From: an uncultured Bacilli bacterium
Lineage (GTDB): Bacteria; Bacillota_I; Bacilli_A; RF39; UBA660
Direction of reading: 5' to 3'
Assembly (NCBI GenBank): GCA_934087065.1
Contig: CAKOIS010000005.1
Location: forward strand, 2,789-66,788
DNA length: 64,000 bases
This document shows, piece by piece, positions 3,001 to 55,644 of the stretch (positions within the stretch are counted from its first letter, which is position 1; each line of letters begins with the position of its first letter). The translations under genes were made by a program, and so were the position numbers. The notes under the pieces were generated by a model. That model saw only the letters and a list, made by a program, of their open reading frames with translations, ran no database searches and had not been told where the DNA came from.

Positions 3001-3137
3001 CTAACAATATAATAAATAAGTATGAGAGTGTTATAAGTAGTGAATTACTTGCAACAATTGAAAAAAATAACGGAGAAGTAAGCGAGTACATTGACGAAGA
3101 AGGTAACAAGTTTGAAATTAAAATAGAGAAAAAATAA
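54..3137 (+). CDS. ileS: isoleucine--tRNA ligase
   Basis: 1028-aa ORF. Class I aaRS HIGH-like 'PGLHHVFAKT' and KMSKS 'KMSKS' motifs are visible in the translation. GGAGGG SD sits 5 nt upstream of ATG at 54; the ORF-track start at 24 is an upstream in-frame extension. Confidence 0.9.
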   Translation: MYKEIKENTNDLESNLVSKWKSENLLEKTIKNREGKEDFVFYDGPIYANAKPGLHHVFAKTIKDAFCKYQTMQGKRVLRKIGLDTHGLPIEVNVEKKLGFKTKADIEAFGIENFCKECNSETATNIDEVNKMTDMMGQLIDSDNPYITCTNEYIESEWWLIKNIFDKGLIYHGNKVLPYCYRCGTELSKNEVSLGYQEDTVNTVIVPFKLVDKDEYMLVWTTTPWTLIDNVAACVNPDLTYLKVESMGYKFILCESLANKVLGDEYTVLDKFKGSDMVGLNYEQLLPFAKVSGKSFVVLADDYVTDADGTGIVHIAPAYGEDDSRVCRENGIAFVQSVGKDGTYTTGPWTGRTVTDPELEIEIIKYLKENDKLFKKIKMTHEYPHCWRCKSPLIYYSKPAWYIETTKYKDKILASNKTVNWYPEFVGEKRFNNWLENMIDWGISRNRYWGCPMPLWTCECGHIECIGSRSELQSKIVEDTDVFKMELHRPYIDSLHIKCPECGKVMSRVTDVMDVWFDSGAMPYAQMHYPFENKELFESQFPADFIAEGVDQTRGWFNSLICISTLVSGVSSFKNVVVNDMMLDAKGKKMSKSTGNIINPEEIMKEYGADAVRFYMLYASPVWTPLKFDIEGVKEVNSKFFSTLKNTYNFFSMYANADKLETKDFINSTSYELIDRWMLSKLNRLVKEVTTAYNEYDLNRVVKPLVNFVSEDLSNWYIRRNRRRFWKGELDESKKSVYKVTYEVLVTLSQLLAPVSPFLAEEIYTNLTKEESVHLSDFPKCNEELIDLDVEKQMDLVRDVVSLGRNAREEANVKIRQPLSKVLLDKKNEGVIGNLTDLIKEELNVKEVMYTNETSDYLTYTVKPNFKEVGKLFGKNIGEFSKFVSEFTSEDIKNIESKTVTYDGVTYNLNKDMLDIRVSAKEGYDVTSDGVNFVILDTTITPELKDEGILRDLIRQCQVLRKNIGLDISDRISIEFNTTEELTNNIINKYESVISSELLATIEKNNGEVSEYIDEEGNKFEIKIEKK

Positions 3138-5627: not shown

Positions 5628-8600
5628 TACCTATTAAACCAAGTGATGCAATATGGACGGATGAACAATGGAATGCAATATATGATAAAGGACACAATAT
5701 AATAGTATCTGCGGGTGCTGGAAGTGGTAAAACTGCTGTTTTAAGTGAAAGAGTAATTGAAAACTTAAAAAGTGGAATGAGCATAAAAGAAGTATTGTTG
5801 CTTACATTCACTAAAGCAGCAAGCTTAGAAATGAAAACAAGAATTAGAAATAAAATTAAAAAGAACCCTAGTTTATCTAAAGAACTTTCATTGATAGATG
5901 AAGCATATATAACAACATTTGATAGTTTTGCATTATCAATTGTAAAAAAATATCACTATATACTAAACATAAGTCCAAACGTAAGCATTATTGATGAGCC
6001 AATAATAAGAATAAAAAAGAAAGAAATACTAACTAATATATTTGATAAGTATTATGAAAATAAAAATGAGAAATTTTTAAAACTTATAAGTGACTTTTGT
6101 ATAAAAGATGATAAAGAAATATTTGAAAGTATTTTGTCTATTTATTCTAAAATAGATTTAAAATATAACAAGAACGAATACTTAGATAACTATATAAATG
6201 AGTACTTTAATATTGATAGAATTAATAATGATATAAATGATTACGAAAAACTTTTAATGAGTAAATTTGAAGAATTAGATTATCTAATTGAAGATATGTC
6301 TTATTATACAGATAGTGACTATATAACTAACTTAAGGCTAAGTGTTAGTAACCTAATGAGTTCTAAAACATATGACGAAATAGTATCAAACTTAAGTGTT
6401 GAAATACCTAGACTACCCAAAGGAAGTACTGACGAAGTAAAAGAAAAGAAAGAACTTATTAATGATGTAATTAAAAATATAAAAAGTTTATGTTCTTATA
6501 AAAATAGAGAAGAAATAATGAGTAGTATTTTATCCACTAAAGAGTACAAAGAAGTAATTATTGACGTATTAAAAGAATTTGATAAATATGTAATGGCTTA
6601 TAAATATGAAAATGATATTTATGAGTTTACAGATATAGCTAACCTAGCAATAAAATTAGTTAAGGAAAACGTGAGTGTTAGAGAAGAACTAAAGAATTCC
6701 TTTAAAGAGATAATGATAGACGAGTATCAAGATACAAATGACTTACAAGAAATACTAATTAACATGATAAGTGATAATAATGTCTATATGGTTGGAGATA
6801 TAAAACAATCTATTTATAGATTTAGAAATGCAAACCCAGATATATTTAAAGAAAAATATAATAAGTATAGTAACCATATAGGTGGAGAGAAAATAGACTT
6901 AAATAAAAATTTCAGGTCAAGAGAAGAAGTACTTAATAATATTAATTTACTATTTAATAAAGTAATGGACGAAAGTATAGGTGGAGCCGATTATATTAAA
7001 AGCCATCAAATGATTTTTGGTAATAAAAGTTACATTAAAAAAGGAAAAACTCTACAAAACTATGACTTTGAATTATATAGTTATATGTATGATAAAAAGA
7101 GCGAATACTCTAAAGAAGAAATTGAAGCATTTATTATTGCAAAAGATATACTTAGTAAAGTAAAAAGTAATTATCAAATATTTGATAAAGACACAAGTGT
7201 ACTTAGAAACGCAGAATATAGTGACTTTGTAATACTAATGGATAGAACTACTAACTTTGACTTATATAAAAAGATATTCTTGTATTTAGGTATACCACTA
7301 GAATTATATAAAGATGAAACAATGAACGAGGACACTGATATAATTGTATTAAATAACTTAATAAAATTTACTATTAAACTTGATTCAGGAGTATATGACA
7401 AAGAACTTGAGTACTTGTTTACAAGTGTTATGAGAAGCTTCTTGTGTGAAAGTACTGATGAAGAAATATTTGATACAATTAAAAATAAGACAATACTAAG
7501 TAGTAACTTAGCTAATAAAGTAAAGAAGATTAAGTTAAATAATAAATCTAGTTATGAAATAATAAATGATTTAATTAATGAATTTGATTTTTATAATAAA
7601 CTTATTACAATAGGTAATGAAAGTGCTTCAAGCGTAAAAATAGAAAACATTTTATCTAATGCAAAAACCACAAGTGGTATAGGTTACGATATAAATAGTT
7701 TTAGTGACTACTTAGATAATGTTATTAAAGAAAAAATAGACATAAAATACACAATTCATAGTGGTGTAAGTAACTCGGTTAAAATAATGACTATTCATAA
7801 ATCAAAAGGACTAGAGTTCCCAATATGTTATTTTTCAGGACTTTATAAGCCATTTAATATAAGTGACATAAAAGAGAAGTTTACATATAGTAATAAATAT
7901 GGAATAATAACTCCATATTTTGATGAAGGGGTAGGAGAAACCATTTATAAAAACTTACTAAAAAATGATTACTTAAAAGAAGAAATTAGTGAAAAAATAA
8001 GACTATTTTATGTAGCCCTTACTAGAGCAAAAGAAAAAATGATTCTAGTAATGCCTTATGAAGAGATAGTAAATGGTAAAGAAAGTGATTTAGTAAGTAG
8101 TGTAGTAAGAAGTAAATATAAAAGTCTTTTAGATATAGTATCTAGTACTTTAGTAAGTTTAACTAAGTATGTTACAGTAATTGATTATAATAAATCAGGA
8201 ATTTCAAAAGACTATAGTTTACTTATTAAAAAAGACTTTAAAAGTGGAATAGAAAAAAGTAGTGAAGTATTAAATGTAAACGAGCTTTTAGTTGAAAATG
8301 AAACTTTAATAGATAAACATTACTCAAAAGAAAACAATAAACTAATTACAAATGACATAAAAAAGAATATTGAGTTTGGTAAATATGTTCATGAAGTTTT
8401 AGAATATTTTGACTTAAAAAAGAAAGATTATTCTTATATAAAAGATGAGTTTATCAAAAATAAAATCATATCTTTTAGTAATTTACCAATATTTGATAAT
8501 GTAAGTGAGGCTAATATCTTTCATGAATATGAGTTTGTTTACACATTAGATAATACTAAATATCATGGAATAATAGATTTAATGCTAGAATATCCTGATC

Positions 8601-26785: not shown

Positions 26786-26935
26786 TATTTACAAAATTAA
26801 CTTTTTGTAGTAAAATACTATTCATGAGTTCGCCGTAGACCGTAGGTATACAAATAAATCCTACCGAGGAAGACTAATCTTTTAAGAAGTTTTCCTTGTG
26901 CGGAAAACTTTTATTAATATTATAAGGAGGAAAAA
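26786..26935 (+). promoter_or_regulatory. rplJ (L10) leader with stem-loops / attenuator
   Basis: 150-nt untranslated region between rplA and rplJ. Hairpins cgccgtagaccgtagg...cctaccgagg and gaagttttcc/ggaaaactt + TTTT. Matches position of the known L10 leader. Confidence 0.45.
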
Positions 26936-52735: not shown

Positions 52736-52788
52736 GTCTTGTAAAAGGCTTTTCTTTTTGCTACAATATTTATTACTTGGGTGGTTTT

Positions 52789-53868
52789 ATGGAAAAGTAT
52801 TTGATTAATATTTTAAAAGATAAAGATTTTGACGAAATCGTAATAGGAGACGCGTGTATTTATAAAGAAGGAGAATATTTTATAGTAAGTGCATCTTACA
52901 GTGAATACAAGTTATCTAAAAAATTATACAGATATTTAAAATTAAATGGGTTAAACACTAAAGTGCGTATAGCTGACAATAAAACTCCCAATAAGAAAAA
53001 GATAGATAAATTATACCAAGGCATTCCAAAAAAAGACATTAGTTTTTTGTTTTATGCTGCTGATGGAATATTTAGTATATATGACTATGAAGGCTTAACT
53101 GAAGTTCAAAATTTAGTTAATTATTATAAATCGTTTATAGGTAAAGATATGTCAGCTCTTGAAAGATTATTAATGGCTTATGATATTGTGAAGAGCATTG
53201 TTTATGACTTTGAAGACGTTGACAAAGTGTATGGTGGTAATATTAAATATTACATGGATACCGGACGTATTGCCTGTGCTGGTTTTTCTACTTTACTTTC
53301 TATGATACTTGATAAAAATAGTAAAGACTTAATTGTTAGATGTGAAGGAATTTATGGACGTACTGAAAAAGACGATGGTCACGCTAGAAGTGTCGTTATT
53401 ATAGATGATAATAAATATAATTTTAAAGGACTGTTTGTAATGGACGCAACATTTGACTCAAATTTGGTAGATAATAATATTCTTATAAAGAGGGAAGATA
53501 ATTATAATTATTTTTTATTAAATGTGAAACAAGTAAATCGTGAATATTATAATTTTTTAGATAGTGAATTTTTTTCTAAAGTTAAATCTTATATGAAACT
53601 AAATAGTAAAAAGAATAAGTACAACCTTACTAATACTTTTGATGAAATGTTTGATGTAAGATTAAATAGAAATGAAATGGTTGAGCTTACTAAGAATTTT
53701 AGAAATCAAGAGACGATATTGAAGGCACTTGTAAGAGTGAGAAAACAAGAAGGTTATTCTGAATTTGAAACAATAAGAAGTTTACATAGATATTTGAGAG
53801 AAAATATTCCTAATACTAAAAAGATATTTGCTAGAAAAGTAAGAGATATTGTGAAAGAAAATTATTAA
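52789..53868 (+). CDS. hypothetical protein, possible transglutaminase-like fold
   Basis: Cys/His/Asp in 'RIACAGFS ... GHARSVVII ... FVMDATFD'. Confidence 0.35.
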   Translation: MEKYLINILKDKDFDEIVIGDACIYKEGEYFIVSASYSEYKLSKKLYRYLKLNGLNTKVRIADNKTPNKKKIDKLYQGIPKKDISFLFYAADGIFSIYDYEGLTEVQNLVNYYKSFIGKDMSALERLLMAYDIVKSIVYDFEDVDKVYGGNIKYYMDTGRIACAGFSTLLSMILDKNSKDLIVRCEGIYGRTEKDDGHARSVVIIDDNKYNFKGLFVMDATFDSNLVDNNILIKREDNYNYFLLNVKQVNREYYNFLDSEFFSKVKSYMKLNSKKNKYNLTNTFDEMFDVRLNRNEMVELTKNFRNQETILKALVRVRKQEGYSEFETIRSLHRYLRENIPNTKKIFARKVRDIVKENY

Positions 53869-53921: not shown

Positions 53922-54306
53922 AACTTGAAGTTTCAATTTGAAACTTCAAGTTTTGTAATTGTGCAAAAGTCGCATTATAATTTACAATGTGAATGTTAAA
54001 GAACTAGTTATGAAATATGCTAAAATATATTCAAACTTGAAGTCACAAATTGTGACTTCAAGTTGTAATAAAGCCAAGATACAAAGCATGACAATTATTT
54101 GAAAAAGCGCATAAAACTGTAAGTTTTAAAGATTTTTTTTAAATAAAAAAGTTCAAACTTGAAGTCACAATTTGTGACTTCAAGTTTGATAACATAATAT
54201 AAAAAATATAACAGTTATTAAAAAAGCAACGTAAAATCGTAAGCTTTAATAGAATTTTTAAACCGAAAAAGTGAAAACTTGAAGTTTCAAATTGAAACTT
54301 CAAGTT
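53922..54306. repeat. tandem array of four 31-33-bp perfect palindromes (AAACTTGAAGT[ttcaa|cacaa]N[ttgaa|ttgtg]ACTTCAAGTTT) at ~112-122-bp periodicity; inter-palindrome segments related
   Basis: Palindromes at 53922-53952, 54034-54064, 54156-54186, 54276-54306. Each is a perfect inverted repeat around one central nt. Spacers share 'aaaag(c/t)gcaTaaaa..gtaag.tttaa'. Confidence 0.85.
53953..53981 (+). promoter_or_regulatory. promoter TTGTAA-17-TATAAT abutting palindrome 1
   Basis: -35 starts at the nt after the palindrome. Confidence 0.4.
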
Positions 54307-54344
54307 TGTTACTTAAAAAATTACGAAAAAAGACAAACAATTAG

Positions 54345-54373
54345 TTGACAAACGAACGAGCATTTGTTAAAAT
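54345..54373 (+). promoter_or_regulatory. promoter TTGACA-17-TGtTAAAAT for the ORF6N-domain gene
   Basis: Consensus. Confidence 0.55.
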
Positions 54374-54417: not shown

Positions 54418-55281
54418 ATGGAGAATAGTATAATTTTAAGAGAAAATGAAGTAATAGAAAATTTAATTTATGAAATTAGAGGAAAACAAGTAATGTTAGA
54501 CTCAGACTTAGCAAAATTGTATGAATGTAAAAACGGTGCAAAAGTTATTAATCAAGCAGTGAAAAGAAATATAACTAAGTTTCCAGAAAGATATTGTTTT
54601 CAATTAACTGAAACTGAGTATAGAAACTTGAAGTTCCAAAATGGAACTTCAAGTTTGAATACCTATGGTGGAGTTAGAAAAATGCCGTTTGTATTTACAG
54701 AACAAGGTGTTGCAATGTTAGCGACAGTTTTAAAAACTCCTGTTGCTGACGCGGTTAGTATGAAAATAATAGATGCATTTGTGTATATGAGAAGATATTT
54801 ATCAGGTGTAACTGGTAGTAATATGTTAGTTAATCATGAAGAGAGAATATTAAAACTAGAAGAACAATTTAATAGGTTCTCAAGTAAAAGAAATACGATT
54901 ATTTATGAAGGAAAAATATATGACGCTTACAGCGTGATGTTAGATATATTTAATGAAGCTAATGACGAAATGATTATAGTGGATAATTATGTAAATAAAG
55001 AACTATTGGATATTTTAAGAGAAGTAGATAAAAAAATAATAGTCATATCAAATAATATGAATAATGAATTAATTAAGAAATATGAAAGTCAGTATGATAA
55101 TACTCAGTTTGTTAGTGATAATCCATTTCACGATAGATATATCATACTTGACAGAAAAGAAGTGTACGTAAGTGGAATGTCATTAAAAGATGTTGGTAAA
55201 AAATATAGTTATATAAATAAGATAGAAGAGAGCATTTTTATAAATGAATTAATTAAAAGAATTATAAAAATATTAAAGTGA
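54418..55281 (+). CDS. ORF6N-domain (KilA-N-like DNA-binding) protein with uncharacterised C-terminal domain
   Basis: AAGGAGG SD then ATG 54418. N-terminus 'LIYEIRGKQVMLDSDLAKLYECKNGAKVINQAVKRNITKFPERYCFQLT' matches the ORF6N signature. Contains a fifth palindrome copy at 54624-54656. Confidence 0.55.
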   Translation: MENSIILRENEVIENLIYEIRGKQVMLDSDLAKLYECKNGAKVINQAVKRNITKFPERYCFQLTETEYRNLKFQNGTSSLNTYGGVRKMPFVFTEQGVAMLATVLKTPVADAVSMKIIDAFVYMRRYLSGVTGSNMLVNHEERILKLEEQFNRFSSKRNTIIYEGKIYDAYSVMLDIFNEANDEMIIVDNYVNKELLDILREVDKKIIVISNNMNNELIKKYESQYDNTQFVSDNPFHDRYIILDRKEVYVSGMSLKDVGKKYSYINKIEESIFINELIKRIIKILK

Positions 55282-55395: not shown

Positions 55396-55644
55396 ATGAA
55401 AGAAAAACTTATGGAAGAATTAACTCCACTGTTAAGTGAAGTAGGAGTAAAAATTTATGATATTTCTTTTGAAAAAGAAGATGGAGTAGATACATTATTT
55501 ATTAAAATTGATAGTGATAAAGAAGTTGATACTGATTTATGTACTATGGTATCTAATATTGTTAACCCTGTAATTGACAAGTTAGATTTAATTAAGGAAG
55601 AGTATGTTTTAGACATATGTAGTAAAGGAGAAGAAAATGAATAA
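55396..55644 (+). CDS. rimP: ribosome maturation factor RimP (short, N-terminal domain only)
   Basis: Position upstream of nusA; 82 aa. Confidence 0.55.
   Translation: MKEKLMEELTPLLSEVGVKIYDISFEKEDGVDTLFIKIDSDKEVDTDLCTMVSNIVNPVIDKLDLIKEEYVLDICSKGEENE

Follow-up and report, generated by a model that had tools for sequence, protein, structure and literature searches.

Directly upstream of a gene for an ORF6N-domain protein, the chromosome of a low-GC Firmicute carries four perfect palindromes in a row, and a fifth palindrome of the same family lies inside the gene itself. This arrangement raises the question of what the palindromes are, whether it is the DNA or a transcript that pairs, and what ties them to the gene beside which, and within which, they lie.

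An array of palindromes and a copy inside the adjacent gene

The window, by which we mean the whole 64-kb stretch of DNA that was analysed, has around the array the gene order spoVB-like, rsmE, an unknown ORF, mtaB, a 363-aa ORF, the array, the ORF6N gene and rimP-nusA-rnpM/ylxR-infB. The four intergenic palindromes (P1 to P4; Table 1) follow one plan, AACTTGAAGT-N11-ACTTCAAGTT, with cores starting at 53922, 54034, 54156 and 54276 and start-to-start spacings of 112, 122 and 120 bp. The original prediction, made from the letters of the sequence, had claimed four perfect palindromes at this place, and all four are present and perfect; the constant half-site that it described is real too, but is 10 nt long (AACTTGAAGT / ACTTCAAGTT) rather than 11. 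When up to two mismatches were allowed, the window yielded five copies, namely P1 to P4 and the gene-internal P5, and none elsewhere, and 100 dinucleotide-preserving shuffles of the window yielded 0 matches. A motif count had been named as the check that would expose a generic REP-like element; the motif is local, all five copies in the 64 kb being found here. A covariance model built from unrelated sequences and run on the window with filters off recovered P1 to P5 at 40–48 bits (next best match in the window, 13.8 bits), and on folding each of the five forms a hairpin of 14–17 bp with a z-score of −5.6 to −8.6, as DNA or as RNA.

Table 1. Palindromes, spacers, gene and promoter-like site of the locus (window coordinates).
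Feature	Position	Strand	Description
P1	53922–53952	.	Perfect 31-bp palindrome (15+1+15); inner arm TTTCAA, centre T
Spacer S1	53953–54033	.	81 nt, unrelated to S2/S3; holds TTGTAA-17-TATAAT (53953–53981)
P2	54034–54064	.	Perfect 31-bp palindrome (15+1+15); inner arm TCACAA, centre A
Spacer S2	54065–54155	.	91 nt, 62% identical to S3; hypervariable between strains
P3	54153–54189	.	Perfect 37-bp palindrome (18+1+18), core 54156–54186; inner arm TCACAA, centre T
Spacer S3	54187–54275	.	89 nt, paralogous to S2; 63–70% identity between strains
P4	54275–54307	.	Perfect 33-bp palindrome (16+1+16), core 54276–54306; inner arm TTTCAA, centre A
Promoter-like site	54345–54373	+	TTGACA-17-(TG)TAAAAT; conserved across strains and the wider ORF6N-PLD family
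ORF6N-PLD gene	54418–55281	+	287 aa; ORF6N domain aa 16–104; PLD-fold domain ~aa 159–287
P5	54625–54655	+	Copy internal to the ORF6N gene; inner arm TTCCA, loop AAA

The individual copies differ in their settings. P1 lies 54 nt past the stop codon of the upstream ORF and is followed by TTTTG, with the promoter-like −35 of S1 adjoining; P3 is the exact reverse complement of P2 with flank, and is terminator-like on the minus strand only; P4 lies upstream of the ORF6N gene promoter and ends 37 nt from its −35. The internal copy P5, translated as N70–S79 (NLKFQNGTSS) of the ORF6N domain, has a 15-pair stem and a 3-nt loop, counting the flanking A–T pair. The whole region had been described as a ~120-bp unit repeated four times with related spacers, which is borne out for the paralogous S2 and S3 but not for S1, which is only 35% identical to them, and TRF (Tandem Repeats Finder) recovers only 2.3 copies of a 120-bp unit (54033–54308). 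Both promoters that had been proposed match the consensus, but the −35 of the first, in S1, is not conserved between strains, while the second, that of the ORF6N gene, is conserved. The region is not a CRISPR array, as had also been recognised: the repeats differ in their inner arms, the spacers are 81–91 nt long with S2 and S3 paralogous, and no cas genes lie nearby. We also considered, and rejected, the idea that the units are decayed copies of the gene segment 54540–54660, for which there were a spacer similarity of 26 nt (77%) and a suggestive by-eye translation; in tblastn and blastn searches the palindrome alone matches, and homology of the flanks is not significant.

The ORF6N domain of the adjacent gene product scores 107.6 bits against the Pfam model PF10543 (cut-off 27.8; aa 16–104), and the product is a full-length match to the PADLOC model of PDC-S05 (PDLC04869; E 8.7e-82, residues 5–283), which would make it a candidate member of a candidate single-gene phage-defence family. 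One other PDC-S05 representative has been reported to protect E. coli against T7, T5 and T4 (bioRxiv 10.1101/2024.09.26.614923). In the AF2 model, residues 159–287 (pLDDT 82–93) have a PLD fold, and Foldseek matches them to NucT (6ehi, E 1.3e-5), Zucchini (4ggj), PLD3/4, TDP1 and the SauUSI nuclease domain; a sequence search of solved structures gave no match. Pfam PLDc_2 reaches 22.3 bits in one homologue, under its threshold of 27, and some ORF6N-PLD family members have a precomputed PF13091 match. The PLD motif is FHDRYIILD, in which H238, D239, R240 and D245 are invariant (FHDR[YF]I..D), and it reads HxRx4D where PLD enzymes have HxKx4D, with arginine in place of lysine. In having a C-terminal PLD fold with an HxK-like motif and an N-terminal nucleic-acid-binding domain (here ORF6N, for which binding is predicted), the protein resembles PLD nucleases that carry a DNA-recognition domain (BfiI type; compare the nuclease domains of NucT, Zucchini and SauUSI); it differs from them in its HxR(x)4D arginine, and is a putative nuclease. 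The palindrome-coded residues 73–86 have a pLDDT below 50 in the same model, and we therefore read this segment as a tolerant, disordered loop.

Several smaller features of the locus deserve mention. The promoters of ORF6N-PLD genes (that of the window, that of L097 at 5832–5860, and those of L299, L302, L305 and L306) read TTGACA-17-TAtAAT and conserve a dyad-like spacer motif, AACAAATGTT (GCATTTGTT in the window), which could be a second operator. Nothing in Pfam, NCBIfam, PADLOC or PHROG matches the 363-aa ORF between mtaB and the array (52777–53868); strain contigs L292 and L293 have a shorter version of 324 aa, and in L123 to L125 it is split into 291 + 63 aa, so that it seems to be decaying. 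The rimP gene (55396–55644) encodes only an 82-aa N-terminal RimP domain and overlaps the start of nusA, and since it is the same in all strain contigs its shortness is a feature of the lineage, not an error.

The coding copy across phyla and its neighbours

We scanned one genome per species for both 10-nt arms and found them, exact, in ORF6N reading frames at at least 119 loci in many phyla, at 24–67% GC. The matches listed come from Bacteroidota, Verrucomicrobiota, Acidobacteriota, Elusimicrobiota, Proteobacteria, Nitrospirota, CPR lineages and Firmicutes, with one Nanoarchaeota MAG, and at nearly all loci listed its in-frame translation is NLKSQ[IF][VA]TSS, within the ORF6N domain. A second, unbiased set of ORF6N genes was collected from viral and metagenome contigs by means of protein patterns remote from the palindrome (AFTEQGVxM, RGQKVM and QKVMLDxDLA) and gave 117 distinct domain sequences, 45–67% identical to the ORF6N domain of the window. 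At the same codon site, 113 of the 117 have at least 11 of 15 positions paired, and 45 have a perfect stem of at least 10 bp, as against 0.5% of synonymous-codon shuffles made from these genes (an excess of ~70-fold).

The two arms change together. Among 91 distinct 31-mers, in a covariation test that ignores kinship, 13 of 14 stem pairs have changed on both sides and pairing holds in 89.6% of cells; none of 500 shuffles attains the observed level, and a slid control does not come close. The paired changes alter amino acids in both arms (TCA..GTG, S..V; TCG..GCG, S..A; TTT..GAA, F..E; TAC..GGT, Y..G), relatives carry one to three tandem in-frame hairpin modules in the coding segment, and apart from the apex CAA-W-TTG, which alone is universal in sequence, the stem covaries. 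Since the covariation alters both translated arms, and since the segment is a low-confidence loop, we infer that selection acts on the nucleic acid and that the protein tolerates the result. The coding copy has been conserved from phylum to phylum in the face of codon usage as well as amino-acid identity. As a separate observation, the hairpins of L249, L088, L086, L092 and L040 have arms that look like a Shine-Dalgarno sequence and its complement (GGAGGT...ACCTCC, AGGTGG...CCACCT), which comes from the rare AGG arginine codon in LRSQ.

Additional hairpins of the family keep close to the gene. Among the matches listed, 37 of 44 extra hairpins lie within 750 bp of the gene-internal copy, and across the 119 loci among these matches the density of hairpins is 0.3 per kb within 750 bp and ~0.01 per kb beyond; about a quarter of the intact loci listed have at least one extra copy, and most have the internal copy alone. 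The extra hairpins share the apex C-A-A-W-T-T-G, mostly in the form TC[AG]CAAWTTG[TC]GA, and have outer stems that differ from one another and are each self-complementary. Their placement varies: L092 (Desulfobacterales) has five copies upstream and two downstream, L088 (Flavobacterium) has an array of seven 3' of the gene, three lie upstream in L228 and two in L231, and L089 has at least two perfect upstream copies and two imperfect ones. Within the ORF6N-PLD subfamily, upstream copies number 0 in L299 and L302, one in L097 (where it ends 18 nt upstream of that gene's own −35), L306 and L305, and at least four in the clade of the window; they are therefore dispensable, some relatives having none at all. 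These results place P1 to P4 and P5 in a single family of hairpin-forming DNA palindromes, a hallmark of this ORF6N subfamily, with one copy at a fixed coding position and others in frame, just 5' or just 3'. The earlier idea that the palindromes are constrained and tied to the adjacent ORF6N gene is upheld, and the tie proves much stronger than the sequence by itself could reveal, given both the coding copies across phyla and the clustering of extra copies there.

Variation among strains and the level of pairing

Fifteen contigs of the same species with shared synteny were each compared with the window. The outer arms of P1 to P4 are unchanged between strains at 80 of 80 positions, while the spacers are 70–75% identical and the third codon positions of the flanking genes 87–94%, so that divergence is faster in the spacers than at synonymous sites. 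Where an inner arm has changed, its partner has changed to match: in other strains P2 goes from TCACAA/TTGTGA to TCCCAA/TTGGGA and P3 to TTTCAA/TTGAAA, in one strain P4 goes to TTCCAA/TTGGAA, and for P5 an intermediate state is seen in L296 and a compensated one in L294. The centre base flips between A and T in backgrounds otherwise identical over ~400 nt; the sole difference between L290 and L293 is the centre of P4. Inversions with P2 and P3, or P1 and P4, as their ends were rejected, because the orientation of the spacers is the same in all 15 strain contigs and the centre base alone flips. A palindrome centre found in both orientations is also known from the flip/flop of parvovirus terminal hairpins and from the inversion of inverted-repeat spacers; here, in contrast to both, it is a single base pair that flips, in a chromosomal palindrome, and no rolling-hairpin replication is implied. 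The number of copies varies as well, with at least five upstream in L294.

Two of the strain contigs differ in the gene itself. L294 (3024–3791) and L296 (3005–3772) carry independent frameshifts in or just after FHDRYIILD, leaving a product of 255 aa, which looks like the loss of a costly defence gene. In L297, an IS30-like (HTH_38) transposase gene (455–1591) stands upstream of rimP at the end of the contig, and the ORF6N island may have been interrupted or replaced in that strain.

As to which nucleic acid pairs, covarying pairs hardly ever show a one-sided G·U state, and mismatches in extragenic copies are strand-symmetric (G:T 15 vs. A:C 13). In the coding copies, the sense strand has G:T 30 vs. 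A:C 68, a count dominated by one redundant phage clade, and wobble on the sense strand is not enriched. Searches against Rfam 15 gave nothing at the gathering threshold for the palindromes or the array, in the window or in 10 array-bearing loci, and only chance-level miRNA-type matches at E up to 10; the one hit elsewhere in the window, a ribosomal protein L10 leader at 26815–26924 (48.8 bits, above its gathering score), is unrelated to the palindromes. The alternative once offered for the array, that each unit is a small structured RNA, is not supported by these data, given that the spacers outpace synonymous sites, that Rfam has no match and that mismatches are strand-symmetric. As a function of the family in general, termination was set aside, most members having no T-run. 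Pairing at the level of DNA, not RNA, is therefore favoured, with the family kept as a Watson–Crick-perfect dyad, because G·U pairs are rare, mismatches symmetric and T-runs few, and because complementarity runs close to the centre and the centre occurs in both orientations.

Possible roles of the palindromes

Relatives of ORF6N in the KilA-N/Bro-N group are regarded as nucleic-acid-binding. On the patterns in the sequences, our leading reading, which we hold tentatively and at a little under an even chance, is that the palindromes are DNA-level dyad or hairpin sites that are recognised by the ORF6N domain and act in cis on its own gene. The domain would read either the dyad or a hairpin or cruciform extruded from it, and binding upstream of the promoter and inside the gene would result in feedback control or local sequestration of the product. 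Restraint of that kind would suit an ORF6N-PLD defence protein of PDC-S05 type that may be toxic. On this reading, tandem duplication of a unit made up of one palindrome and one spacer would have produced the four-copy array, which may still be expanding, converting between copies and flipping its centre base through palindrome-driven template switching or recombination. Because the sites within one locus differ (the inner triplets at the window locus are TTT, TCA or TTC, and outer arms vary within L088, L092 and L305), recognition would have to be of structure and apex rather than of a long sequence. Outer arms that differ between sites, yet are each self-complementary, point to intrastrand pairing; a simple double-stranded operator read by a dimer fails to explain them. 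The perfect symmetry and the compensated changes could be owed to template-switch 'palindrome correction' or to conversion between copies, not to selection on each site.

Other readings have to be weighed against recognition of the DNA by the ORF6N domain. If the hairpins acted in RNA, which we consider unlikely, the intergenic ones would be terminators (intrinsic or bidirectional), insulators or 5'-UTR hairpins with a stabilising or regulatory effect, and the internal one a protein-bound or RNase III-cut element of the mRNA. A simple terminator scan does call P1 on the plus strand and P3 and P4 on the minus strand, the predicted stabilities are −16 to −24 kcal/mol, and P1 and the copies of L097 and L305 sit as a terminator of the upstream gene would, with T-runs following them, those of L097 and L305 directly after its stop codon; in other phyla a hairpin lies 1–45 nt before the start codon and is for that reason taken to be transcribed. 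Against this, the T-run is absent from most extragenic members, an internal copy cannot terminate its own gene, G·U pairs are nearly absent and mismatches lack strand asymmetry, Rfam has no match, and the arms pair up to one base from the centre, more than a hairpin loop calls for. The absence of RNA-type covariation also weighs against an arrangement like type III toxin–antitoxin systems, in which transcripts of the array, as repeated hairpins, would bind the ORF6N-PLD protein and so neutralise it. As in those systems (ToxIN), a repeat array lies directly upstream of a putative toxic, abortive-infection or defence gene, and a promoter-like site stands at its 5' end; however, type III systems have RNA repeats of ~34–45 nt and an endoribonuclease of ToxN/AbiQ fold, whereas here the units are ~120 nt with hypervariable spacers, the fold is that of PLD and the pattern of conservation is another, the −35 of the upstream promoter is not conserved, and relatives have no or one upstream copy, so that we regard this reading as very improbable.

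Two further readings are both decidedly doubtful in our estimate. Were the palindromes sites of recombination or mobility, ORF6N genes would be palindrome-bounded cassettes and the arrays the scars or substrates of insertion, duplication or conversion. Such a cassette is bracketed in L305 by a 57-nt direct repeat (1808–1864 and 3013–3069; 96% identical) that holds AAAGTGGTCACAATTTGTGACCACTTT and is like attL/attR or a duplicated target; homologous single-gene cassettes lie between different pairs of housekeeping genes, namely between mtaB and rimP, between uvrC and gatC or RNase J, and between GGDEF-EAL and carbohydrate kinase genes, with further locations between radical SAM and PFL and beside a cupin gene; and arrays differ in copy number, with mosaic alleles and rapid turnover of the spacers. 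However, the gene has no recombinase or transposase as a constant neighbour, the window has no palindrome 3' of the gene, most loci have the internal copy only, and the fixed in-frame position across phyla is left unexplained. The remaining possibility is that the intergenic copies are neutral, a coding palindrome being occasionally duplicated and its functionless copies kept perfect by palindrome-specific mutation. The centre flips and the small shared set of inner arms (TTTCAA, TCACAA, TCCCAA, TTCCAA) fit conversion or template switching, the spacers are unconstrained and some relatives lack upstream copies. This reading has to contend with outer arms that stay unchanged beside spacers differing by 25–30%, with arrays kept beside ORF6N genes by independent lineages in distant phyla, and with recurrent placement just 5' of a start codon or promoter, and it leaves unaccounted for the conservation of the coding copy against the codon usage of GC-rich genomes.

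A bolder form of recognition by the ORF6N domain, which we think improbable but worth stating, is that the palindrome is a self-marking hairpin or cruciform, read by ORF6N through its structure and the CAAWTTG apex and written into the domain's own coding sequence. Every ORF6N gene, cellular or viral, would then carry the ligand of every ORF6N protein; an ORF6N-PLD protein could be parked or silenced on its own array and redirected to incoming DNA that bears ORF6N genes or extrudes hairpins; and single-gene ORF6N cassettes would move between housekeeping loci by way of the palindrome, which would serve as a portable recombination site as well.

Known systems share parts of this arrangement. 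Like the operator or iteron arrays of autoregulators, the locus has repeated dyad sites near a promoter, next to a gene (and here inside it too) whose product is predicted to bind nucleic acid; unlike them, it has perfect palindromes of 31–43 bp, arms that covary rather than keep one sequence, and a copy embedded in the coding sequence of the putative binding domain itself and conserved across phyla. REP/BIME elements with their RAYT genes (REPtrons) are also hairpin-forming palindromes tied to one protein family, with copies flanking its gene, but they occur in hundreds of dispersed copies and go with a Y1/HUH transposase, whereas the ORF6N palindromes are local (within ~750 bp, in the window and at the loci listed), perfect, in one case coding, and go with an ORF6N domain; the neighbours of the array are mtaB, the unknown ORF, ORF6N-PLD and rimP, with no Y1 (IS200/IS605-like) transposase among them. 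The palindromic elements of Rickettsia and the coding palindromes of Nematomorpha mitochondria (PMC6649704) likewise lie within ORFs, with both arms translated and tolerated by the protein; here, in contrast, there is a single short element at one fixed site of one domain family, with conservation at the nucleotide level across bacterial phyla and with copies outside the gene.

In the literature on ORF6N, on KilA-N with palindromes or hairpins, and on the core sequences, we found no description of the element, and PDC-S05 appears there in defence-system surveys only. Repeated dyad sites beside the gene of a binding protein are, by analogy, an arrangement already known; for a site in the domain's own coding sequence, and for its persistence across phyla in spite of codon usage and amino-acid identity, we could find no precedent. 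If the palindrome is the cognate site of ORF6N, it would be the first predicted ligand for a very large uncharacterised family that reaches from annotated anti-repressors and ORF6N regulators to PDC-S05 defence candidates, and oligonucleotides for testing it could be ordered straight from the consensus. It would also be a clear case of selection on DNA structure overriding the amino-acid sequence of a conserved domain across phyla, would affect how the domain's 'conserved motif' (NL[KR]SQ..TSS) is read, and would open to experiment the question of how a PLD-fold defence protein is restrained.

In practice, short-read assemblies break at the element, which can also resemble a CRISPR array. Short-read contigs end at the palindromes (L122 and L127 start at P4, and L298 starts just past P5), and array length is therefore probably under-reported in metagenomes. 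Finally, despite the PHROG label 'anti-repressor', this ORF6N subfamily occurs in only 4 of 50,697 phage records, all of them uncultured faecal phages, and it is found on 25 plasmids, mainly of Bacteroides and Legionella.
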